Assembly: GCA_964655055.1 (NCBI GenBank)
Contig: CAZZLI010000003.1
Span: forward strand, 2,381-66,380
Direction of reading: 5' to 3'
Origin: an uncultured Ferruginibacter sp.
GTDB lineage: Bacteria > Bacteroidota > Bacteroidia > Chitinophagales > Chitinophagaceae
Length of the DNA stretch: 64,000 nt
Position numbers and translations under genes: made by a program. Every line of letters begins with the position of its first letter. Position 1 is the stretch's first letter. The notes beneath the pieces were generated by a model. It did not search any database. It had not been told where the DNA came from and saw only the letters and a list, made by a program, of their open reading frames with translations. Shown piece after piece: positions 18,574 through 28,550 of the stretch.

Positions 18574-19929
18574 TCAGTCCTTCCAGCGCCTGAAGTCGAG
18601 TTTGATGGTCCGGCTAAGGACGATAGCAAGCCAGAGCAGCAGAACAGGAACAACAGTCGTCAGCATCCGTGTTTCCGCCGATCCGGGAATACTGCCGCCC
18701 AGGTAGATGAGGGTGAACAACAATAAAAAACGAACCGCGAAGGGAAGGCGTCGCCAGTTGACAAGCGTCGGGTAAACGGCGATCAACATCAACAGCAAAA
18801 GCGTACCGCTCATCGGCAACCGAGCAAGGGTCGAAGGCTTTTGCGGCATATACGAATAGGGAAAGTTAAAGAAGATTCTTCCCAGGTTGCTGAAACAGTT
18901 CCGGATGAATTTTACCGGATGATTGCGGATGTTTTCCATCGCTTTCCGCTTATAGGCATCATCACGGGCAACTCCGGTGTACCGGTCGAATGTGTCATAA
19001 TCGGCCTTGTGGCGGCGGTTGATGGAGTCCATATACGAAGACACATAAACGGTTCTGTTGATCAGATTCAATCCCCCACCCTTTGCCTTCTCTCTACCTA
19101 TATTCGTCAGGGATACCACATCCTCATCCTTTGTATCGGTAGGACCGGGCATATAGCTTCCGTATTCGTCCTCAAAGGGGGAAGACATCGGATAGAGATT
19201 GAGACCGGCCGAAGTGCCCCAGTAGAAATAGCGTCCGCTTAATGACAGCGTATAGGCCAGATACGGCAACACGCATAAAAAAGCAACCAGCAGCAACTGT
19301 AGCAAAGGTTGGTAATGACTGTTCCTCCGGTCAAATAACCATAGCAGGAGCATGCCCGCCAGCAGCAACAACAGTACATACCCGAAAATCAACTTGGTCA
19401 GGATGAGCAAGGACAAGGTAATGCCGGATAATAAAACAAGGCGGATGGAACCGGCACGGGATTTTGCATGCAACAACTCAGCAACCAGATATAAAAAAGC
19501 CGTAGTCAAAAAAATAGCGAGCGACTCGGAATAGAGCAAACCGATATAGTCAACGGCATTAAAATAAAACGCCCAAAAGAAGGAGGCCATCAACGTGATC
19601 TTTACCGAAACGAAACGGCGGAGGGCAGCATATAAAAAAACCAGAGAACCATACAAAAGCAAGCCGTTCAACAAGCGCATGATCAGCAAGGGTGCGTCGA
19701 GAAGGTAAAACGGCAAAAGGAAAAGGGGATAGCCCGGACCCACTTCCAGGTCTACATGGGGAGGGGGTGGAGAAAAGAAGCCCTGTGAAAGATTCCGCAC
19801 ATAATTCATGTGGCGCACTTCATCGCCATGAAGGCCTGCGCTGCTGGTAAAAACAATGAAGATGAGATAAACGAACAGAACCGGCAGAAAAAGAAGCCAG
19901 GGACGATCAAAAATCCGGCTGTTTTTCAT
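18574..19929 (-). CDS. GT-C fold glycosyltransferase-like membrane protein (ArnT/GT39/PMT-like)
   Basis: Polytopic; first periplasmic loop carries GDE, then PGYPLFL, YSESL and a large soluble loop. Confidence 0.65.
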   Translation of the reverse strand: MKNSRIFDRPWLLFLPVLFVYLIFIVFTSSAGLHGDEVRHMNYVRNLSQGFFSPPPPHVDLEVGPGYPLFLLPFYLLDAPLLIMRLLNGLLLYGSLVFLYAALRRFVSVKITLMASFFWAFYFNAVDYIGLLYSESLAIFLTTAFLYLVAELLHAKSRAGSIRLVLLSGITLSLLILTKLIFGYVLLLLLAGMLLLWLFDRRNSHYQPLLQLLLVAFLCVLPYLAYTLSLSGRYFYWGTSAGLNLYPMSSPFEDEYGSYMPGPTDTKDEDVVSLTNIGREKAKGGGLNLINRTVYVSSYMDSINRRHKADYDTFDRYTGVARDDAYKRKAMENIRNHPVKFIRNCFSNLGRIFFNFPYSYMPQKPSTLARLPMSGTLLLLMLIAVYPTLVNWRRLPFAVRFLLLFTLIYLGGSIPGSAETRMLTTVVPVLLLWLAIVLSRTIKLDFRRWKD

Positions 19930-20054
19930 GAGTGAATATTTATTTTTTCCGATGGCACTTGGAATGGCCTATTCTGATTTATGGTTGGTATCAAGCAGCC
20001 CTTACCGGTATTTAATTAATCGTTTGCTTTTTTGGAACCGTGGTTTTACACTGT

Positions 20055-21116
20055 TCAAGCCGAAGATTTTTTTCCGTCCGACTGCTGCACCCGAAGCGAA
20101 GTACCCAGATGGAACATTTCCTCGAAATAGCGCTTGTTCTGCAGCGAGAGGAATCCAAGGCCTAGAAATTGTATGGAAGCCAGAAAGGTGATACCGCCCA
20201 CGAGGAAGGATTGCGGATTCTTTTTGAACTGGGTTGAAAGACTCTCCGAGAACGGGTAATCCACATGGGGCACCTGACGGTACAGTTCACCCATATAGGA
20301 AAGCGTGTCATACAATAGCCAGACCAACTGGTAAAGGGAAAGACAGAGCAGGATTGCACCGATGCCCATGAAGAAGATGTAGGGCCTGAAGATGAAGCCC
20401 GACATCAGCCCGGAAAAGAAACTGCGTAATACCCGAAGGCTTGATGTGCGTTTCCCCTTGAACTTGTTCTGCTCGGTCCAGTCGAGATGCGCAGGAATCT
20501 CGATCATCCGGGCACGAAGGATCATCGACTTGTAGATGATTTCGGGCATCATCTCGTAATCGCGGGTTTTCAGGTTTACGGAAAGTATGTACTCCCTGCG
20601 GTAGGCACGAACCATTCCGGTAAACGTATAATATTTGTCCTGTGCGGCAAAGCTCATGAAGCGGTTCACCCATTTGCTCATGACACGGCGCTGGAAGGGA
20701 ACGGCGGTTACTTTTCCGCCCTTCATATAGGGTGAGGCGATTACAATATCGGCGGCATTGGCAACCAGGGTATCCACCATCTGTTCCACATATTCCACGG
20801 AATAGCTCAGATCCACATCCAGCACCACAATCACCTCCCCCGCCGAGTTGCGGAAACCCGTCTGCAAGGCCATACCCAGGTTGAGGTTCACGGGATGGTG
20901 GATGATCCGTACTTCCGGCCGGCGCCGGGCATAATCATCGCCGATAGCACCCGTTTTATCCTTGCTGCCATCGTTGACAATCAGGATTTCCCAGTTGTAC
21001 TTATGGCTCTTGCTTTCCAGATAGCGGATCACCACATCCAGATTTCCGGGAAGAATGGCCTCCTCGTTATAGCAGGGCAGTATGACGCTTATTAAAATCT
21101 TGCCAGTGGTATCCAT
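20055..21116 (-). CDS. Family 2 glycosyltransferase with C-terminal TM helices (polyprenol-phosphate sugar synthase, GtrB/ArnC/DPM-like)
   Basis: ISVILPCYNEE, IVNDGSKD, DVD, VIASPY..GG, two C-terminal TM segments. Start at ATG 21116 is supported by the upstream TATATTTG. Confidence 0.85.
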   Translation of the reverse strand: MDTTGKILISVILPCYNEEAILPGNLDVVIRYLESKSHKYNWEILIVNDGSKDKTGAIGDDYARRRPEVRIIHHPVNLNLGMALQTGFRNSAGEVIVVLDVDLSYSVEYVEQMVDTLVANAADIVIASPYMKGGKVTAVPFQRRVMSKWVNRFMSFAAQDKYYTFTGMVRAYRREYILSVNLKTRDYEMMPEIIYKSMILRARMIEIPAHLDWTEQNKFKGKRTSSLRVLRSFFSGLMSGFIFRPYIFFMGIGAILLCLSLYQLVWLLYDTLSYMGELYRQVPHVDYPFSESLSTQFKKNPQSFLVGGITFLASIQFLGLGFLSLQNKRYFEEMFHLGTSLRVQQSDGKKSSA

Positions 21117-21167
21117 CGAATTTTGAACGTTTACAATTACGGAATGATTGATCGGTTTTTTACGGAA

Positions 21168-21175
21168 CAAATATA
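21168..21175 (-). promoter_or_regulatory. Internal -7 promoter element TATATTTG upstream of GT2
   Basis: CAAATATA on + strand in an AT-rich gap 52 nt upstream of ATG 21116. Confidence 0.5.
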
Positions 21176-21254
21176 TAACTAATTGATTACGATGCCCTTG
21201 GGACTCAAACAACTTGCTTCGTATGCAATATTCATTAACTCCATTTGGGCAGAT

Positions 21255-22553
21255 TTATTTTACGCCGGGATAACCCGGCTGAATTTTTTTTGCAGATGAG
21301 GCCTGAATCAGGAAATAGGACAAGGTCGAACAAAGCAAAAAAACCAAAGCGGTAAACAATGAAACCGGTGCCACCAGAAAAACCAATCCTGTCAAAATTG
21401 TTTTCAGCAGGAGGTGTACTTCAAACGAACCGCCTTCGCGCATCAGGAGAAATACGGGAAACAGCAACATCACCCCGTAATAACTCAACGTTCCCGGGTA
21501 AATCAGCAAAGCAGCCAGCAACACAACAGGCCAGTGCCATTCCGCCCTATTTTTACGGTTGAGCCAATACAGAACAAACAGCGTCAGGAGCAACAGGCAG
21601 AACAAGAGCAAGGTGTAGGGCAGGGAGTTCTCGAGTGTAATCAGTTTCCACCGAAGCATCACAGCGAGCAGCGATTGGTTGATGGGCTCCTGGAATACCC
21701 AGGCAGGCAGCCTTTTGGAAGGATTGTCGAACAGGTAAGTGAGAAAGATTCCCTTTCCCCAGATTCCCAGGGTGATAAGACCATAAGCCAATCCCGTTGC
21801 CGCAGCGTACAGCAGTGCCTTCCATTGCTTCCGGAAAAGAAAAACCAGTCCGAAAAAAGCCATATAGGGTTTTACCAGAAATCCCAGCGCCAGAAATACG
21901 CCGGCAATCGGACGATGCTCATAGCGCTTCATCAAAAGCAAAAGATAAAGCGTGATGAAATTCGTCTGTAAAAACTGAACCGTTTGGCGGGAAGCACCCA
22001 GGAGCAGTACAAGGGTGGCAACCAGTATCCATCCCTTCGACCCCTGGTCAGAAAACCATATCCGGAAGATCTGATGGATGCAGAGCGGTAGGAAAAGCCA
22101 GGTGAATACCATCCAGGCTTTTTCGGCAACCGGATACGTCATTGCACCAAAAGGCGCATACAACAACATGGAAGGCGGAGGATACATGGCACCCGTTTGC
22201 ACGATTTCCTCCGTAAACTCACGGTAATCGAGCGGAGGCAGATCCGACAAGCCCGAAAAGACCTTGCCCAGATGCTCCGGATTATAAACATCATATCCAA
22301 ATACGGCAGCCTTGCCGTATAAATAAAAAGCGGAAAAATCAAAAACGGCCGGATGGTTTAAACGCTCTACCAGTTTCGCAATAAAGAAAACGAGAACAAA
22401 AGACAAGATAACCCGGGAGAGAAGGGAATACAGTTTTGCGGAAGGGCCGCCCTCTCTGCGCTGTTGATAAAAACAAAAACAGGCAGCCGAAGCAAGCGCC
22501 ATCGCCGTGAAAGGCTGTTGCCAGATCGACCGTATCCATTCGCTCCAATTCAT
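21255..22553 (-). CDS. Glycosyltransferase family 87 (DUF2029) GT-C protein
   Basis: DF..FY, YPP, Q.N, LG...KPY and NQS motifs; polytopic membrane protein. Confidence 0.78.
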   Translation of the reverse strand: MNWSEWIRSIWQQPFTAMALASAACFCFYQQRREGGPSAKLYSLLSRVILSFVLVFFIAKLVERLNHPAVFDFSAFYLYGKAAVFGYDVYNPEHLGKVFSGLSDLPPLDYREFTEEIVQTGAMYPPPSMLLYAPFGAMTYPVAEKAWMVFTWLFLPLCIHQIFRIWFSDQGSKGWILVATLVLLLGASRQTVQFLQTNFITLYLLLLMKRYEHRPIAGVFLALGFLVKPYMAFFGLVFLFRKQWKALLYAAATGLAYGLITLGIWGKGIFLTYLFDNPSKRLPAWVFQEPINQSLLAVMLRWKLITLENSLPYTLLLFCLLLLTLFVLYWLNRKNRAEWHWPVVLLAALLIYPGTLSYYGVMLLFPVFLLMREGGSFEVHLLLKTILTGLVFLVAPVSLFTALVFLLCSTLSYFLIQASSAKKIQPGYPGVK

Positions 22554-22586
22554 CAAGATAATTTAAATTTCAGAGCAATTTTCTGC

Positions 22587-24020
22587 TCATGTAGCCATCC
22601 ATAACAGCAATCCTACCAGTATGAAAATAACATAACTGACTTTATCCTTCAAGGCATAAATGATGGGGTCATCGGTCATGTTTCCCCTGTTGGTAACCAC
22701 CCATACCCTGCAGATCCAGAACAGGAAGAGCAGGCTGATACCCCACATGAATTTAGGATGGGTATAGAGTCGAAGTATTTCAGGGCTGTTGATATAGAGT
22801 GAGAAAACCACCACCGAAACGAAACCACTTACAACACCCATGGAACGGAGCAGGGGCAAATCGTCACTGAGATATTCCCTCCCGCGCTCGAGGAGGCCAG
22901 AGGTACCTTCCACCTTCATCAACTCCGAAAAACGCTTCACAAAAGCCAGGTTGAGGAAAAGGAAGGTGGAAAAAGCAATAAGCCAGAAAGAGATGGGAAT
23001 ATCGGTAGCCACACCACCGCCCACGACACGGGTCGAATAGAGCAGGGCAAGCACGAATACGTCCAGCAATACCAGCCGCTTCAAGACTACGGAATAGATA
23101 AGCGACAAGACAAAATACATAAACAATAAGGCCAGAAAATGCCAGCTGAGCAGAGCACCGGTTACAACACCGCATAGCAGCAACAGGATCACCAAAAAGG
23201 TTCCGGCCACCAGCGAAAGGTCGCCCGAAGCGAAAGGCCTTTTGCATTTTCGGGGATGGATACGGTCGGATTTCAGGTCAAAAAAGTCGTTGATGACATA
23301 TCCGGCGGATGCCGTGAAACTGAAGGCCAGAAAAGCCAGAAAAGCCTTGCCGATCGAATTACCGGAACCCAGGGAATGGGAAGTGATTACGGGAACAAAT
23401 ACGAGCAGGTTTTTCACCCACTGGTAAGCACGGATTGCCTTGACGGAGGAAATCAGAAAATTCGGCCGGTCGGCCGGCCAGTAATTCTTCAGCCGTGAAA
23501 CCTTACCGGTTCTTCGCTCGAGCCAGCGCGATCCGTTGACCAGATAAGCATAGCGCGCTCCGGCAAAAACCGGCAGGTCGGCATAGGAGTTGCCCACATA
23601 ATCGAATCCCTGTGCTCCAAACTTTTCGCTCAGCATGGCCTGTTTGTTGCTTCCTTTGAGGTTGACCGCATCGGTTCCGTAAACCTCATCGAAAAGCGGA
23701 TGCATAGCGGCAACTGACCGCGCGGCCGCCAATGGAGATGCGGTGGCCAGCACCAGCCTGCGGCCCGATTGCTTTTGCTCGCGCAGAAACTGCAGCAGCG
23801 ACTGGTTGAAGGGCAGGGTTTGATAGGGGAAGTCGATCCGGGAAAAGATCTGGTTCTTAAGCTTCACCTTTCCCTGAAGCAACCAGATGAAGCAATAGAA
23901 GATACGGAAAGGATTCCTACGGATGTACGCGACAAAACCCTCCATCAACAGGTCGGTGTTGATGAGGGTGCCGTCCATATCGACCACAAGGGGTATCTGC
24001 TTGTCAGTTTCCTCGGTCAT
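22587..24020 (-). CDS. HAD phosphatase-UbiA prenyltransferase fusion (decaprenyl-phosphate phosphoribosyltransferase-like)
   Basis: N-terminal DMDGTL; C-terminal R..QWVKNLLVF, YVINDFFDLKSDRIHPRK..RPFASG, KRFSEL, DDP...ALKD. Confidence 0.85.
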   Translation of the reverse strand: MTEETDKQIPLVVDMDGTLINTDLLMEGFVAYIRRNPFRIFYCFIWLLQGKVKLKNQIFSRIDFPYQTLPFNQSLLQFLREQKQSGRRLVLATASPLAAARSVAAMHPLFDEVYGTDAVNLKGSNKQAMLSEKFGAQGFDYVGNSYADLPVFAGARYAYLVNGSRWLERRTGKVSRLKNYWPADRPNFLISSVKAIRAYQWVKNLLVFVPVITSHSLGSGNSIGKAFLAFLAFSFTASAGYVINDFFDLKSDRIHPRKCKRPFASGDLSLVAGTFLVILLLLCGVVTGALLSWHFLALLFMYFVLSLIYSVVLKRLVLLDVFVLALLYSTRVVGGGVATDIPISFWLIAFSTFLFLNLAFVKRFSELMKVEGTSGLLERGREYLSDDLPLLRSMGVVSGFVSVVVFSLYINSPEILRLYTHPKFMWGISLLFLFWICRVWVVTNRGNMTDDPIIYALKDKVSYVIFILVGLLLWMAT

Positions 24021-24042
24021 ATTTTTAAAGGCAACTTTCGAT

Positions 24043-25020
24043 TCAGTCGCCCCGGATTGTTTTGGTTTTTAGCGGTTTGCCCGAAAGTGTTTTGGTGAAC
24101 GCCTCCATCGGCATCAGGTCGAAATGCTTCTTGAGCATGGTGATGGCAATCTCAAAGATTTTCAGTTTGCGCTCGCTCCGGATATTCATTCCCGGGAAAA
24201 AAGACAGGGAAGGAACATGGTCAGCTCCCATCAGATCAAGTGGATGCAGCAGATAACTGGGCGATGTCCTTGTTATTTTGCTCAAAAAAATCGATACCCA
24301 CAGATATAATTTCATAAGTCCCACCGACACGTTGCTGATATAGAGCAGATAGCTCTGGTGATATGGCAGCTTAAAAAACGGCATGGTGGTCACCGGAATC
24401 TCCAGCAGCTTTTCCCCTTTACCCAGATCCCATTGATAGGGCTTTAGCGGATAAAAACCCTCTTTGTAAGACCCGAAAAGTTCTTTGCGGCTCTCCTTTT
24501 CCTCTTTGGTGAGCTTGGAATTCCAGAAATAATACTGACGCATGAGCGGAGCGATGTAGGTAGGCAGTATGGAAGCGTCAAAAATATAGTTGCGCTTCTT
24601 TAGCACCTTAAGCAGGTCGTAACTCCAGCTGAAGCCGGGCCCGCGGAACATATTTGTGCGTACGCCGGTGGCCTTCAGGATGGCTTCTTCGGCGATGCGG
24701 ATCTCATTGTCGATCTTTTCGGCGGAATAGGTCTTCAGCCACGATTCATGATGGAAGGAATGATTGCCCACTTCGTGACCCCGTTCCACGATGCTGCGCA
24801 GCACCTTATGGTTCTTTTCGATGGCGGCGTCCTGCCCCACGATGAAGAAGGTGATTTTCACGTCGAGCTTGTCGAGCACATCGAGCACCAGCGGCAGAAA
24901 GACGTCGAGGTAGGAGGGAAAGCTTTCCCATCCATCGTCGCCGTGCACTTTCATATAAGACCACTGGTCGTCGAGATCAAGAGAGATACTGGCAGGCAGC
25001 TTCTGTTTACCCATTGGCAT
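24043..25020 (-). CDS. Polysaccharide deacetylase family protein
   Basis: SISLDLD, ITFFIVG, GHEVGNHSFHH, FRGPG, YLLHP.D. Confidence 0.85.
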   Translation of the reverse strand: MPMGKQKLPASISLDLDDQWSYMKVHGDDGWESFPSYLDVFLPLVLDVLDKLDVKITFFIVGQDAAIEKNHKVLRSIVERGHEVGNHSFHHESWLKTYSAEKIDNEIRIAEEAILKATGVRTNMFRGPGFSWSYDLLKVLKKRNYIFDASILPTYIAPLMRQYYFWNSKLTKEEKESRKELFGSYKEGFYPLKPYQWDLGKGEKLLEIPVTTMPFFKLPYHQSYLLYISNVSVGLMKLYLWVSIFLSKITRTSPSYLLHPLDLMGADHVPSLSFFPGMNIRSERKLKIFEIAITMLKKHFDLMPMEAFTKTLSGKPLKTKTIRGD

Positions 25021-25026
25021 TTGCTA

Positions 25027-26337
25027 TTAAGCGTTCAAAATTTCTTCCAGTTTGGTTTCTGCCACCCGCACGGTTTCATTCACGTTCAGGGTTCCGTCCT
25101 TGATGTGCGATGTGTTCACCACATACACATGCGGTACTGAAGTGCGGATGCCGGGCAGCTTGTCGGAGTAACCCAGACGGGCCACGGTGATCACATGCTT
25201 GGCCTTAGCCACGCCGGCAAAAACTATATCGGCCGCTGTGAGCGACGGATACATCTGCAGGAAATGGTCGAGGAAGTATTTCCGGATTTCTTCATCGGGC
25301 TTGTCGAACAGCGGATCATCGGCCACCACATATTTGGGCAGATAGATCAGCGAGTTCCCGCCGAGATATTTCGGGTCAACCAGTGCCGTCATTTCAATCA
25401 CCCCGGTAAAGGGGAACCGGTCGTCGGTGATGTTGGTGATGTAAAATTCGCTGATGGGCTTGCGCAGCAATACCGCCATGCAGATCACGCCCAGGTATTC
25501 CACCCCGTTGAGCTTTTCTTTTTCAGCGGAACTAAGTCCGGTGCAAAGTTGCGCCGCCATGGAAGAAGGCAGGGTGACAATCACCTCATCGAAAGAATCT
25601 GCCGATCCACCCGAATGCACGATGGCAGGTTTTCCGTCGGCTCCGGTGCGTATTTCGTTAACCGGAGTCCGGGTGTGAATTTTTACCCGCTCATCGGTCA
25701 ATGTTTTTTTGAAGGCTTCAATCACCTGCTTGTACCCGCCGGTCACAAAACCGAACATCTCTTTTTTGAGTCCGCTGCGCCTTGCACCATAAAGCCGCTG
25801 TATGGTTGCCCAGATGAATACGGCCGAAGTGCGCTTGTAACTGTCGCCCAGTTTGGCCCGCAGCAAAGGCAGCCAGATCTTGTTATAGGTATTTTTCCCC
25901 GACCAGCGCCGCAGCCATTCGGTTACCGGCACCTGCTCCAGCTTTTTCCAGTTTTTGATGCGCGATGCAACCAGGATGGTAAGACCAAGTCGGAATTTAT
26001 CAAACAGGTTGAGCGTGGGAAACTTGAGGAACTCGATGGTGTCGGACATGGAATGCAGCTTCCCTTCAATGTAGAATCCGGTTTTGGTTTCCACCCACTC
26101 GAGGTTGTTTTCCAGACCGATATCTTTAAGGATACTCCGCGTACGAAAATCGGACAGCAGGATGACATGGTAGAACTTATCCCACTCCACGCCGTCCATC
26201 GACCATGAACTTACCAGACCGCCCAGTTCAGGTGCGGCCTCGTAAATCGTCACCGAATGCCCTTGTTGGGCCAGCCGGTGGGCCAGGGTCATACCCATGA
26301 TGCCTCCTCCGACAATTCCCCATTTTTTTGCTTGCAT
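25027..26337 (-). CDS. NAD(P)/FAD-dependent oxidoreductase (amine oxidase/HemY-like fold)
   Basis: IVGGGIMG, YEA..ELGGL, DKFYHVIL, W.PLLRAKLG, GY..GG. Confidence 0.85.
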   Translation of the reverse strand: MQAKKWGIVGGGIMGMTLAHRLAQQGHSVTIYEAAPELGGLVSSWSMDGVEWDKFYHVILLSDFRTRSILKDIGLENNLEWVETKTGFYIEGKLHSMSDTIEFLKFPTLNLFDKFRLGLTILVASRIKNWKKLEQVPVTEWLRRWSGKNTYNKIWLPLLRAKLGDSYKRTSAVFIWATIQRLYGARRSGLKKEMFGFVTGGYKQVIEAFKKTLTDERVKIHTRTPVNEIRTGADGKPAIVHSGGSADSFDEVIVTLPSSMAAQLCTGLSSAEKEKLNGVEYLGVICMAVLLRKPISEFYITNITDDRFPFTGVIEMTALVDPKYLGGNSLIYLPKYVVADDPLFDKPDEEIRKYFLDHFLQMYPSLTAADIVFAGVAKAKHVITVARLGYSDKLPGIRTSVPHVYVVNTSHIKDGTLNVNETVRVAETKLEEILNA

Positions 26338-26394
26338 ACCGTTTCCGGATTTCTTCGATTCAGAAAATTGAATACCGTCTTTCAGACAAACAGC

Positions 26395-27369
26395 TTAGGA
26401 TCTTACCATGAACTGCTTCTGCCATTCGATGGTGCGGATCAGTCCGTCCTCCAGATTCCAGACCGGCTTGAAGCCCAGTGTGGTACTCAGTTTGGTAATA
26501 TCCGGAACCCTGCGCATCACATCCTCATAATTACCGAAGGTGGAATAGGGAATGAAGTTCAGTTTAGGCTCCGAATCGGGGCCGTTGATCAACCGCCAAA
26601 TGAGTATAGCGAGGTCTTTGATGGATATCTCTGTATCCGATTTGGGTCCGGTATTGAAGATTTCGTTGTCGGACTTGTTGCTCTCGATACAAGCCACGAG
26701 GGCGTTTACCGTATCGTCCACATAGGTGAACGTGCGGGTCTGGTTACCGTCGCCGTGGATGTCGATGGTTTCATTTTTATAGGCCTTCTCAATGAATACC
26801 GATTGGGGTCCGCCCCACCAGGTCAGGTTCTGGTTGGGTCCATAGGAACCGAAAAAGCGGGTAATGGTATAAGGCAACCCGTATTCGTCGTGATTGGCAA
26901 TGATATACTGCTCACCGTACATTTTGGAAAGCGCATAGGCCCAGCGCTTCACGGTGGTGGGGCCCATCACCAGGTCGGAACCTTCGGCAAAGGGAATGTT
27001 AGGATTCTTTCCATAGACATCCGAGGTGGAAGCAAAGAGGATCTTCGATTTGTCGAGAATACACTTATGCACCACATTACGGAGCATCAGGTAGTTTTCC
27101 TCCAGCGTGCGCAGGGCATTTGTGTAGCGGGGAATCTTCTGCGAAGCCAGATGCACGATGATATCGGCCCGAACGTCTTTCAAAATGAGCGGGTTGGCGA
27201 TATCCCCCACGATGAACTGGAATTTGGGGTGGTTGCGGATTACCTCCACGTTGCGCAAAAAACCATAGTTGAGGTTGTCCATACCGATGACCTCATGCCC
27301 CCGCTCGAGAAGGCACTTGGAAAGATTCGATCCTACAAAACCTGCTGCTCCTGTGATTAAGATTTTCAT
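26395..27369 (-). CDS. NAD-dependent epimerase/dehydratase (UDP-glucuronate decarboxylase / ArnA-dehydrogenase-like extended SDR)
   Basis: ITGAAGFVG, HLAS, FASTSDVYGK, RWAYALSK (YxxxK), RFF..YGP, GDG.QTR.F.YV.D, RR.PD. Confidence 0.88.
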   Translation of the reverse strand: MKILITGAAGFVGSNLSKCLLERGHEVIGMDNLNYGFLRNVEVIRNHPKFQFIVGDIANPLILKDVRADIIVHLASQKIPRYTNALRTLEENYLMLRNVVHKCILDKSKILFASTSDVYGKNPNIPFAEGSDLVMGPTTVKRWAYALSKMYGEQYIIANHDEYGLPYTITRFFGSYGPNQNLTWWGGPQSVFIEKAYKNETIDIHGDGNQTRTFTYVDDTVNALVACIESNKSDNEIFNTGPKSDTEISIKDLAILIWRLINGPDSEPKLNFIPYSTFGNYEDVMRRVPDITKLSTTLGFKPVWNLEDGLIRTIEWQKQFMVRS

Positions 27370-27761
27370 TGTTTACCTATTTGTTTTGATTCATGAGTGT
27401 TTTTCGGGTATTCCTGCCTTTTCTCCCCCTAAACTTCAGACCCGATTCTTGCCTTCATACCAAAACTCCGCCAAGCTTCGGCACGATGGCCGGGGCAAGG
27501 ACCGGAAATGGGTTTGTTCAGACCCGGAATAAGAAACTGGGATATTGAATCGGGGGCTCCGCATCATCCGCCTGTAACATTGAACTTTTACGAAAAAACA
27601 GGCTTCTGCAGGGGGTTAGATTACAAATGTAACCGCTATCCCCCGAAAAAACATGTTTTCCCGTGTCATCTAAACGATAACTGCCCGATTTTATTGCACA
27701 TACAATTATGTTTTTTTTGCAATAAAACAGAACCCGGAAGGATAAAAATGAGGAAAATCGC

Positions 27762-28550
27762 TTACAGACGGCCGCTATAAATCAGGGCAAGCATCAAAAG
27801 TCCCGCTAAAATCCGGTAAATACCCCAGATCCGGAACCCGTAACGCTGTACAAATCCAATGAAGAAGCGGATGGCCAGAACAGCAACCACGAAGGCTACC
27901 AGGTTGCCTACGGCGAGTAATTTTAATTCGGAGGAGGAGAAGCCGCCATAATCCTTCCAGTATTTGAGCATCTTGTATCCGGTGGCGGCCAGCATGGTGG
28001 GTACGGCAAGAAAAAACGAGAACTCGGCTGCGGCTTTACGGGTAAGTTGCTGCTGCATGCCGCCGATGATGGATGCTGCACTGCGGCTCACTCCGGGAAC
28101 GAGGGCAAGACATTGCCAGAAACCGATGGCCAGAGCCTTGGGTCCGGTTATTTTTTCATCATCATCAATATCACCTCCGGTAAACCACCGGTCGGCAAAC
28201 AGGAGAACAACGCCCCCAACCAGCAGGGTGATTGAAACGGTAAGGGCGCTTTCCAACAAATCATCGATTTTTTTGGCAAAGAAAAAACCCAGCAACAGCG
28301 CCGGCAATACGCCCAGGGCCAGTTTGAGGTAAAAATCGAAACGCCGGAAATCGGTGAATTTTTTCCAGTAAAGGACCACCACGGCAAGGATGGCCCCCAG
28401 CTGTATGGCCACGGTGAAGAGTTTTACAAAATCGGTATCGGGAAGCTGCAGCAACTTCTGGGTGATGATCATATGGCCTGTAGAGGAAACGGGAAGGAAT
28501 TCGGTCAGGCCTTCAACAATGGCAATGATAATGGCCTGCAGGGTTGTCAT
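27762..28550 (-). CDS. uppP: Undecaprenyl-diphosphate phosphatase
   Basis: VEGLTEFLPVSSTGH, IQLGAIL, PGVSRS, AAEFSFFLA.P. Confidence 0.96.
   Translation of the reverse strand: MTTLQAIIIAIVEGLTEFLPVSSTGHMIITQKLLQLPDTDFVKLFTVAIQLGAILAVVVLYWKKFTDFRRFDFYLKLALGVLPALLLGFFFAKKIDDLLESALTVSITLLVGGVVLLFADRWFTGGDIDDDEKITGPKALAIGFWQCLALVPGVSRSAASIIGGMQQQLTRKAAAEFSFFLAVPTMLAATGYKMLKYWKDYGGFSSSELKLLAVGNLVAFVVAVLAIRFFIGFVQRYGFRIWGIYRILAGLLMLALIYSGRL

Follow-up and report, generated by a model that had tools for sequence, protein, structure and literature searches.

Glycosyltransferases of the GT-C type which decorate glycans outside the cytoplasm shape surface antigens, phage receptors and resistance to cationic peptides. 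To our knowledge, few of the pathways that provide the donors for such decoration are known. In Bordetella (LgmABC), Francisella (FlmF2/NaxD/FlmK) and mycobacteria (PpgS/Rv3779), a GT2 enzyme makes a polyprenyl-phosphate-linked N-acetylhexosamine (polyprenyl-P-HexNAc); the acetyl group is then removed while the sugar is lipid-bound, and a GT-C moves the resulting amino sugar to its acceptor outside the membrane. The Arn system (PmrHFIJKLM) adds 4-amino-4-deoxy-L-arabinose (L-Ara4N) to lipid A, and the mycobacterial decaprenyl-phosphate-arabinose (DPA) pathway comprises Rv3806c, Rv3807c, DprE1, DprE2 and the Emb/Aft enzymes. A three-component pentofuranose scheme was described by Kelly et al. 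(PNAS 2024, PMC11127046) for Citrobacter youngae O1/O2. There, ORF15, which consists of an N-terminal HAD phosphatase and a UbiA-type synthase, makes undecaprenyl-P-ribofuranose from phosphoribosyl pyrophosphate (PRPP); ORF13, an epimerase of the short-chain dehydrogenase/reductase (SDR) type, converts ribofuranose (Ribf) to xylofuranose (Xylf); ORF14, a MATE protein, is the presumed flippase; and ORF12, a GT-C of family GT136, adds the sugar to the O antigen (PMC11127046). The authors mention "more elaborate systems" with several GT-Cs, and their supplement contains no mention of FAD, deacetylase, GT87 or Bacteroid (PMC11127046). We analyzed a stretch of 64,000 nucleotides (the window) from an uncultured Ferruginibacter sp., a soil/freshwater member of the Chitinophagaceae in the Bacteroidota (assembly GCA_964655055.1, contig CAZZLI010000003.1), which carries a cluster of seven genes comparable to these systems. 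We propose, with a probability of about 0.68, that this cluster is a mosaic of two cassettes, in each of which the synthase of a lipid-linked sugar donor is paired with a GT-C that comes after it and faces outward.

The seven open reading frames (ORFs) are on the minus strand and were all found where an earlier note on this sequence had placed them; its family calls were confirmed, every one, by Pfam and NCBIfam models. In the direction of transcription they encode: an extended SDR resembling UXS and ArnA decarboxylases (26395..27369, 324 aa; PF01370, E 6e-46); a FAD flavoprotein of the PRK07233 family (25027..26337, 436 aa; NF005560, 482 bits; PF01593, E 2e-31); a CE4 de-N-acetylase of the NodB fold (24043..25020, 325 aa; PF01522, Polysacc_deac_1, E 2e-23); a fusion of a HAD phosphoribose phosphatase (PRP) domain and a UbiA polyprenyl-phosphate phosphoribosyltransferase (PPPRS) domain (22587..24020, 477 aa; PRK08238, NF006088, 585 bits); a GT-C of family GT87 (21255..22556, 433 aa; PF09594, 86 bits for a cut-off of 25); a polyprenyl-phosphate glycosyltransferase of family GT2 and of the DPMS/ArnC/GtrB type (20055..21116, 353 aa; PF00535, E 7e-33); and a compact GT-C of a divergent PMT_2/ArnT-like family, recognized with AlphaFold and Foldseek (18574..19929, 451 aa, hereafter X451). 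The gaps between them, from SDR to X451, are 57, 6, 22, 30, 138 and 125 nt. The HAD-UbiA and GT87 genes form what we call module B, and this cassette is inserted between the deacetylase and the GT2 of module A, to which the other five genes belong. In module B, the UbiA domain would move ribose-5-phosphate from PRPP onto undecaprenyl phosphate, the fused HAD domain would strip the 5-phosphate to give undecaprenyl-P-ribofuranose, and after flipping the adjacent GT87 would add the pentofuranose to an envelope glycan. In module A, a UDP-N-acetyl-amino sugar would be tailored by the SDR (elsewhere by a dehydrogenase and an Epimerase_2 protein), loaded by GT2 on undecaprenyl phosphate and freed of its acetyl group, while lipid-bound, by the CE4 enzyme; the flavoprotein would perform a redox step on the intermediate at the cytoplasmic face, and the product would be flipped and then transferred by the PMT_2-like X451. 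In this scheme we infer the identity of the sugars, the order in which deacetylase and flavoprotein act, and the pairing of donors with transferases.

The neighbourhood survey proposed in the earlier note was performed on about 20 related loci, and the gene set and its order were found to recur in many other genomes. In a Chitinophagaceae-type clade, whose HAD-UbiA proteins are 46-60% identical to the copy of the window, the order begins with an SDR or a 572-aa UDP-sugar dehydrogenase, which takes the SDR slot in other loci, and continues with the flavoprotein, the CE4 deacetylase and, optionally, an Epimerase_2 protein or a methyltransferase. Then come HAD-UbiA, a GT-C (505-aa PMT_2 type or GT87), GT2 and a second GT-C, which is of the X451 type or of a 510-aa PMT_2 type. 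Module A is also present alone, i.e. with SDR or dehydrogenase, flavoprotein, CE4, GT2 and X451 and no HAD-UbiA, in loci L101 (SDR, flavoprotein, deacetylase, GT2, X451), L113, L114, L117, L118, L120, L122 and L123. It lacks a linked HAD-UbiA in at least 10 genomes, and a whole-genome search detected no PRK08238-like gene in 8 of 10 genomes carrying module A alone. Module B is present alone on a separate contig of genome G484 (L125:7285-11361), where HAD-UbiA, GT87 and an X451-like GT-C are found with no GT2, flavoprotein or CE4 gene within 8 kb. Identity levels show a gap as well: between the window and L096/L099 they reach 86% for SDR, 71% for the flavoprotein, 75% for the deacetylase and 68% for GT2, and merely 51-54% for HAD-UbiA. 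Finally, SDR and dehydrogenase are each found both with GT87 and with the 505-aa PMT_2 protein, so that all four pairings are represented. Separate occurrence, identity gap and mixed pairings together support two cassettes with separate histories. The earlier note had proposed two arms, with SDR, flavoprotein and deacetylase in the arm of GT2, and this membership is backed by the loci with module A alone and by the natural fusions of the flavoprotein.

All seven genes could instead form one pathway to a single modified pentofuranose donor used by both GT-Cs, the flavoprotein and the SDR replacing DprE1/DprE2 or the ORF13 epimerase on polyprenyl-P-ribose. We regard this as highly improbable. 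The flavoprotein, SDR and UbiA genes are co-linear in the window, the distance from PRK07233 to HAD-UbiA in Chlorobi-like genomes is 3-7 kb, and in C. youngae O2 an SDR alone turns undecaprenyl-P-Ribf into undecaprenyl-P-Xylf (PMC11127046). However, SDR, flavoprotein and deacetylase accompany GT2 in at least 8 genomes without any PPPRS, the Chlorobi-like loci already have a DprE1-like oxidase beside HAD-UbiA, and the flavoprotein is found fused to GT2, CE4 or methyltransferase domains and to UbiA in 0 of 10 proteins scanned. A single pathway would also leave GT2 and the deacetylase without a role. The flavoprotein and SDR as a substitute for DprE1/DprE2 were rejected, since both occur without any PPPRS.

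Module B resembles the systems of Kelly et al. in its domain order, which is that of ORF15, in its DxDxT and NDxxDxxxD motifs, in the adjacency of a GT-C gene and in the extracytoplasmic addition of a sugar from polyprenyl-P-pentofuranose that it is predicted to perform. The HAD domain is N-terminal (PF12710 over residues 12-151) with DMDGT at residue 14, and the UbiA domain carries NDFFDLKSD at residue 244; these motifs correspond to D18 and N247/D248/D251/D255, which were the targets of mutagenesis in ORF15 of C. youngae. In its C-terminal half, the fusion protein aligns with the DPPRS of M. tuberculosis (8j8j, E 4.5e-27), and DPPRS models score up to 161 bits. Judged from its sequence, HAD-UbiA would make polyprenyl-P-ribofuranose from PRPP. 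The next gene codes for a 433-aa protein which sequence comparison places in GT87: a profile of five sequences (the protein and its relatives) matches a solved mannosyltransferase (9dm5, E 5.6e-10), and D73 is invariant in the first outer loop. In the window and in L002, L095, L097 and L125, GT87 is the gene that comes directly after HAD-UbiA, and its product is the presumed user of the polyprenyl-P-pentofuranose donor. The earlier note had considered that the cluster might be an undescribed system. For the pentose arm this does not hold, as a PRP-PPPRS fusion combined with a GT-C was shown experimentally in 2024 (PMC11127046). Module B differs from the systems of that work by its GT-C, which Pfam assigns to GT87 (505-aa PMT_2 in relatives) and which is probably not a GT136, by the absence of a gene for MATE or another flippase and of a dedicated epimerase, and by being embedded in a second lipid-linked sugar module.

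The likeness to the mycobacterial DPA pathway lies in the presence of a UbiA-type DPPRS homologue alongside GT-Cs, one of which, in the window, belongs to the mycobacterial GT87 family. Unlike in that pathway, a fused HAD domain stands in for the PAP2 phosphatase. Neither DprE1 nor DprE2 is present in the cluster, in agreement with the earlier note, and the flavoprotein of the cluster belongs to a superfamily other than that of DprE1. Whole-genome searches were made on the 2.87 Mb, 174-contig genome of the window, which lies on contig C3; tblastn with a DprE1-like query from L078 detected no DprE1-like gene in it. Because there is no such oxidase, the sugar of module B most likely stays ribofuranose.

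Full-length HAD-UbiA proteins, i.e. above the PRK08238 cut-off, were found in 44 of 401 genomes sampled across the phylum. A locus search with the single HAD-UbiA protein gave mostly weak UbiA matches in Cloacimonadota and one true relative. In 20 HAD-UbiA loci from other families, the other six genes are not nearby, except for the flavoprotein in three cases. A DprE1-like FAD_binding_4/ALO oxidase is directly beside HAD-UbiA in 19 of 20 such loci of the Bacteroidota phylum (L075-L094, e.g. L078:9270-17489). Most copies in the phylum therefore look like parts of arabinofuranose-type pathways, and donor pathways for arabinofuranose similar to DPA seem to be common among these families. In genus g72, which is Chlorobi-like, an SDR, a PRK07233 protein, GtrA and a 637-aa protein without Pfam match also follow. 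Module B is a minimal version of the 2024 pentofuranose system, minus the DprE1-like oxidase typical of other Bacteroidota loci.

Module A can be compared with Arn. It contains an SDR similar to the ArnA dehydrogenase domain (ArnA-DH), an ArnC-like GT2, a CE4 enzyme in the place of ArnD and an ArnT-like GT-C. It differs from Arn in several respects. The ArnB aminotransferase and the formyltransferase domain are missing from all seven proteins and ArnE/F are missing too, an absence of ArnB and ArnE/F which the earlier note had pointed out and which we confirm for the cluster. Module A has in addition the PRK07233 flavoprotein, its protecting group is presumably acetyl and its acceptor is likely a polysaccharide. 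Scores with Arn models are far below the cut-offs: 66 bits versus 529 for ArnC, 21 versus 382 for ArnD and 115 versus 777 for ArnA. Module A appears to follow the logic of Arn, Lgm and Flm (load, deacetylate, transfer) and is not, by these scores, a member of Arn. With respect to Lgm, Flm and PpgS, it adds the SDR and the flavoprotein, its deacetylase is a CE4 versus the YdjC type of NaxD, and identities are low; GT2 scores 66 bits with the NCBIfam model of PpgS, for a cut-off of 370. A last comparison concerns the tailoring of Nod factors by NodB, a CE4 de-N-acetylase, and NodS, an N-methyltransferase. A gene for a NodS-like methyltransferase accompanies CE4 in relatives of module A, among them the closest one, L002, and members of the flavoprotein family occur fused to such an enzyme. 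Unlike NodB/NodS, the window has no methyltransferase, and the substrate would be a lipid-linked monosaccharide, not a chito-oligosaccharide.

The best solved relative of the SDR is the human UDP-glucuronic acid (UDP-GlcA) decarboxylase UXS1 (E 3e-39), followed by ArnA-DH. Its best NCBIfam model is UDP-4-keto-pentose/UDP-xylose synthase, with 141 bits versus a cut-off of 294, and its motifs are GAAGFVG, STSDVYG and YALSK. Outside the window, on contig C15 of the same genome (C15:25465-29742), genes for two homologues of UDP-sugar dehydrogenase are interleaved with genes for two SDR paralogues, which share 30-33% identity with the SDR of the cluster; these enzymes could supply UDP-uronic acid precursors. 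The deacetylase has intact CE4 motifs for metal binding and catalysis (DLDD, HSFHH, RGPGF), its nearest solved relatives are CE4 deacetylases, and the ArnD model gives a weak match (E 1.4e-4). For GT2, the solved relatives are PfDPMS, the dolichyl-P-mannose synthase of Pyrococcus (5mlz, E 1.4e-22), ArnC and GtrB, with 9hwj and 5ekp among the matches, and the best NCBIfam models, PgfS, PpgS and ArnC, are all under their cut-offs. The protein has a DVD motif at residue 100 and two C-terminal hydrophobic segments (239-270 and 303-325). Alignment of homologues favours the ATG at 21116 as its start over the TTG at 21212 (ORF 20055-21212). With a GT-A domain, a DxD motif, C-terminal membrane helices and solved homologues of this kind, GT2 fits, as far as can be predicted, the polyprenyl-phosphate GT2 type. 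A second, adjoining pair of GT2 (29% identity) and X451 (38%) paralogues is present outside the window on contig C59 (C59:5452-7356), without flavoprotein or deacetylase; it resembles a simple two-gene Gtr-like module.

The last protein, X451, has no match of its own in Pfam. We found 144 relatives, many of them annotated as ArnT-like, and 28 of the 48 that were aligned match PMT_2 (PF13231). An AlphaFold model from the single sequence was unusable (predicted local distance difference test, pLDDT, 48), and the model retained is that built with the 48-sequence alignment (pLDDT 91; predicted template modelling score, pTM, 0.91). In a Foldseek search with this model, GT-C enzymes account for all seven matches at E<=0.001 and for the two dozen that come next, the top ones being STT3/AglB/PglB, Pmt4, ArnT, ALG9/12 and AftB. 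After the first transmembrane helix, G35-D36-E37 are invariant or near-invariant and provide the acidic residues of the first outer loop. The 451-aa protein is thus confidently predicted to be a GT-C glycosyltransferase, which agrees with the view of the earlier note that the polytopic proteins have GT-C folds. A search of PDB sequences with the X451-family profile found nothing, and the kinship with GT-C is visible by fold search alone. The comparison of profiles with hhalign gave a probability of 93% between X451 and the 505-aa PMT_2 protein of related loci, and no relationship of X451 with the 510-aa GT-C of related loci or with GT87; X451, the 510-aa GT-C and GT87 are consequently distinct GT-C families. 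In Mucilaginibacter terrae (GCA_042679325; L112:10001-11389), a GT-C of the X451 family with 35% identity is solitary among unrelated genes, with no donor-synthesis gene nearby.

A component of module A that stands out is the flavoprotein. It matches the NCBIfam model PRK07233 over residues 5-434 with 482 bits (cut-off 252), a model which is named "hypothetical protein". It has no transmembrane segment and belongs to the amine-oxidase/PPOX/CrtI superfamily, with weak N-terminal matches to solved structures (protoporphyrinogen oxidase, PF1083, 3ka7, phytoene desaturase). An identity as UDP-galactopyranose mutase was rejected: GLF (PF03275) gave no match at E<=0.01 and mutases are absent from the solved-structure matches. 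An exhaustive search gathered 980 clusters (50% identity) at E<=1e-30. With the model cut-off as threshold, 17 of the 401 phylum genomes contain a member of the family (18 copies in all), as do 12 of 301 Chitinophagaceae species. Of the 18 phylum copies, six are found at 3-7 kb from HAD-UbiA, and at least 8 are in genomes without PPPRS-like UbiA. An ArnC/GtrB-like GT2 adjoins the flavoprotein or is within 6 kb of it in 9 of 12 phylum loci, two of which have the order GT2, flavoprotein, CE4; in the Chitinophagaceae-type clade, the flavoprotein always adjoins the deacetylase. Among the best 150 representatives, 11 are 666-837 aa long (P0241-P0358). Ten of these were scanned: 5 are fused to a NodS-like S-adenosylmethionine (SAM) methyltransferase, 3 to CE4, 2 to GT2 and none to UbiA. 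These natural fusions tie the flavoprotein to the GT2, deacetylase and methyltransferase set, hence to module A, and the fusion to the cytoplasmic GT2 domain argues for a reaction at the cytoplasmic face.

Three candidate reactions can be put forward for this enzyme. The first is an oxidation at the amine exposed by the deacetylase, which fits the amine-oxidase family, the fusions and the coupling of the flavoprotein gene to the downstream CE4 gene by a gap of 6 nt. In the second, a hydroxyl of the sugar would be oxidized in the manner of DprE1 and the SDR would act as reductase. The third is an action on the polyprenyl chain; in HpnE, PPOX and CrtI, the named families nearest to the flavoprotein, the substrates are lipophilic and membrane-embedded, and the existence of flavoprotein loci without CE4 and of Chlorobi-like loci with HAD-UbiA also speaks for this option. 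Literature searches on the flavoprotein and on module A found no description. A broader proposal, which we advance tentatively and hold to be possible rather than probable, is that PRK07233 enzymes catalyze a flavin redox step on a polyprenyl-P-linked monosaccharide which is new to glycobiology and which provides a class of donors for GT-Cs in many phyla and in archaea. Under this proposal, the target in module A is most likely the amino-bearing carbon or the nitrogen bared by CE4, the flavin reaction would work together with N-methylation in relatives, and the alternative target is the polyprenyl chain itself.

Synteny also bears on which transferase uses which donor. The two modules may be real and the pairing different or promiscuous: GT87 would take the donor made by GT2 or a housekeeping polyprenyl-P-hexose, and X451 or both GT-Cs would take polyprenyl-P-ribofuranose. 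This possibility appears rather unlikely to us. A GT-C gene directly follows HAD-UbiA in 9 of 9 clade loci, and it is a GT87 in three lineages which represent independent contexts. Likewise, a GT-C of the X451 type or of the 510-aa type directly follows GT2 in 17 of 18 loci, the X451 family accounting for 13 related loci. In a module A variant, L115:3333-7304 (G484:C2), GT87 is beside a second GT2, a GFO/IDH/MocA oxidoreductase and a hexapeptide acetyltransferase, and thus has its own donor synthase there. On the other side, the characterised GT136 accepts both Ribf and Xylf donors (PMC11127046), and the related loci offer two cases in favour of another pairing. The pairing proposed in the earlier note is therefore presumptive: it rests on synteny, and counter-cases exist.

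Several observations, including these two cases, weigh against the mosaic of two cassettes as we describe it. GT87 orthologues with 38-41% identity are present in module A clusters of genomes without phosphoribosyltransferase (L116/G672, L121/G679), and GT87 can consequently use another donor. In L125 an X451-family GT-C is beside HAD-UbiA and GT87 without GT2, so that the pentose donor may be used by enzymes of the X451 type too. There are loci with the flavoprotein and without CE4, and in Chlorobi-like genomes the flavoprotein is accompanied by HAD-UbiA, a DprE1-like oxidase and GtrA; its step may not concern the amino group. The catalytic Glu of UXS and ArnA is replaced by Asp in the SDR (STSDVYG), and the nearest characterised relatives of this SDR are UDP-GlcA decarboxylases. 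No MATE, GtrA or SMR flippase is found among the ORFs between uppP and the MFS gene which border the cluster, and a tblastn of the genome of the window with a GtrA query gave no match. Lastly, the support for the mosaic is drawn from gene families, motifs, a predicted fold and synteny.

The acceptor of the two sugars is probably a surface polysaccharide, since related clusters are located within polysaccharide loci; lipid A/core and glycoproteins are less likely candidates. Related clusters often come after the priming transferase of such a locus, with Bac_transf, WecG and Epimerase_2 genes nearby, and genes for a Dlt-like AMP-ligase/FkbH, a carrier protein and MBOAT are often downstream. In L096:14363-18967, L098:15851-20220 and L113:11557-20981, Dlt-like sets including a DUF1574-like protein of ~320 aa come directly after the cluster. 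This arrangement suggests an extracytoplasmic acylation of the same glycan. In L097:11483-16150, from a Draconibacterium (GCA_054684775), GT87, GT2 and the 510-aa GT-C are split by frameshifts or stops and an rve transposase is nearby; the distal half of this cluster looks degraded. Module A could also be a modification of lipid A or core, an analogue of Arn and Lgm which adds a cationic amino sugar and confers resistance to antimicrobial peptides, a reading we find quite unlikely. It would account for the ArnC-like, ArnD-fold and ArnT-like components and for the ArnA-DH-like SDR, and the cluster of the window is beside uppP, outside any polysaccharide locus. However, in most other genomes module A comes directly after the genes for the priming phosphoglycosyltransferase, WecG and Epimerase_2 and is followed by Dlt-like acylation genes of polysaccharide loci, the C-terminal periplasmic domain of ArnT is missing from X451, whose resemblance to ArnT is at the level of the fold alone, and ArnB and the formyltransferase are absent from the cluster.

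The transcription of the cluster was considered from promoter-like motifs. The earlier note had reported a separate TAnnTTTG before GT2. This motif is indeed present as TATATTTG on the minus strand (21168..21175, read from 21175 to 21168), in the 138-nt gap between GT87 and GT2 and 59 nt before the ATG of GT2. A second match, TACATTTG, of the -7 type of Bacteroidota promoters, is in the 392-nt gap before the SDR (27624..27631, minus strand). On its minus strand, the 64-kb window contains just 9 copies of TAnnTTTG, one of them inside the deacetylase gene. Of 16 related loci, 7 have the motif in the 300 nt that precede GT2; L002, the nearest relative, has none there. No copy was seen ahead of the SDR in other loci, and support for the motif at 27631 is weak. 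A scan for sigma-70 promoters and intrinsic terminators gave no convincing signal at gene boundaries, promoter-like sites being fewer than in shuffled sequence. Two transcription units in the cluster are plausible from these motifs. In L002, a gene for a 292-aa SAM methyltransferase (L002:2849-3727) lies between GT87 and GT2, where the window has the 138-nt gap with its motif; the methyltransferase gene was recently gained or lost. At 21264-21279, the window has a perfect palindrome rich in G+C, GCCGGGATAACCCGGC, which overlaps the last codons of GT87, a short way ahead of the motif-bearing gap; no T-run follows it on the minus strand.

The cluster closes a minus-strand run of the window in which ftsX, DUF3098 and uppP precede its seven ORFs. 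The uppP/BacA gene for undecaprenyl-diphosphate phosphatase (27762..28550, minus strand; PF02673, 260 bits; NF001390, 272 bits) is a context gene, separated from the SDR by 392 nt. The nearest public relatives are Ferruginibacter metagenome-assembled genomes (MAGs): the HAD-UbiA fusion of L002 is 90% identical, and L095, from a Ferruginibacter MAG, has the identical order ftsX, DUF3098, uppP, SDR, flavoprotein, deacetylase, HAD-UbiA, GT87. The adjacency of uppP to the cluster was not seen in other genera. A role of uppP or of the downstream Atg22-like MFS gene as part of the system was rejected, this adjacency being confined to the lineage of the window.

In the reading that we prefer, Bacteroidota build donor pathways from interchangeable cassettes of the type "synthase plus GT-C". 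With the cluster, the pentofuranose scheme of 2024 comes to include transferases of the GT87 and PMT_2 types. The cluster also marks out an Arn-like amino-sugar module of five genes; the flavoprotein, which is invariant in this module, comes from a family of about 1,000 clusters with no assigned function. Cultured carriers are available in Ferruginibacter sp. SUN106 (GCA_050611765) and in a Draconibacterium isolate, though the locus of the latter looks degraded. Once identified, the reaction of the flavoprotein would provide a new class of enzymes for glycoengineering and would allow the annotation of hundreds of similar loci.

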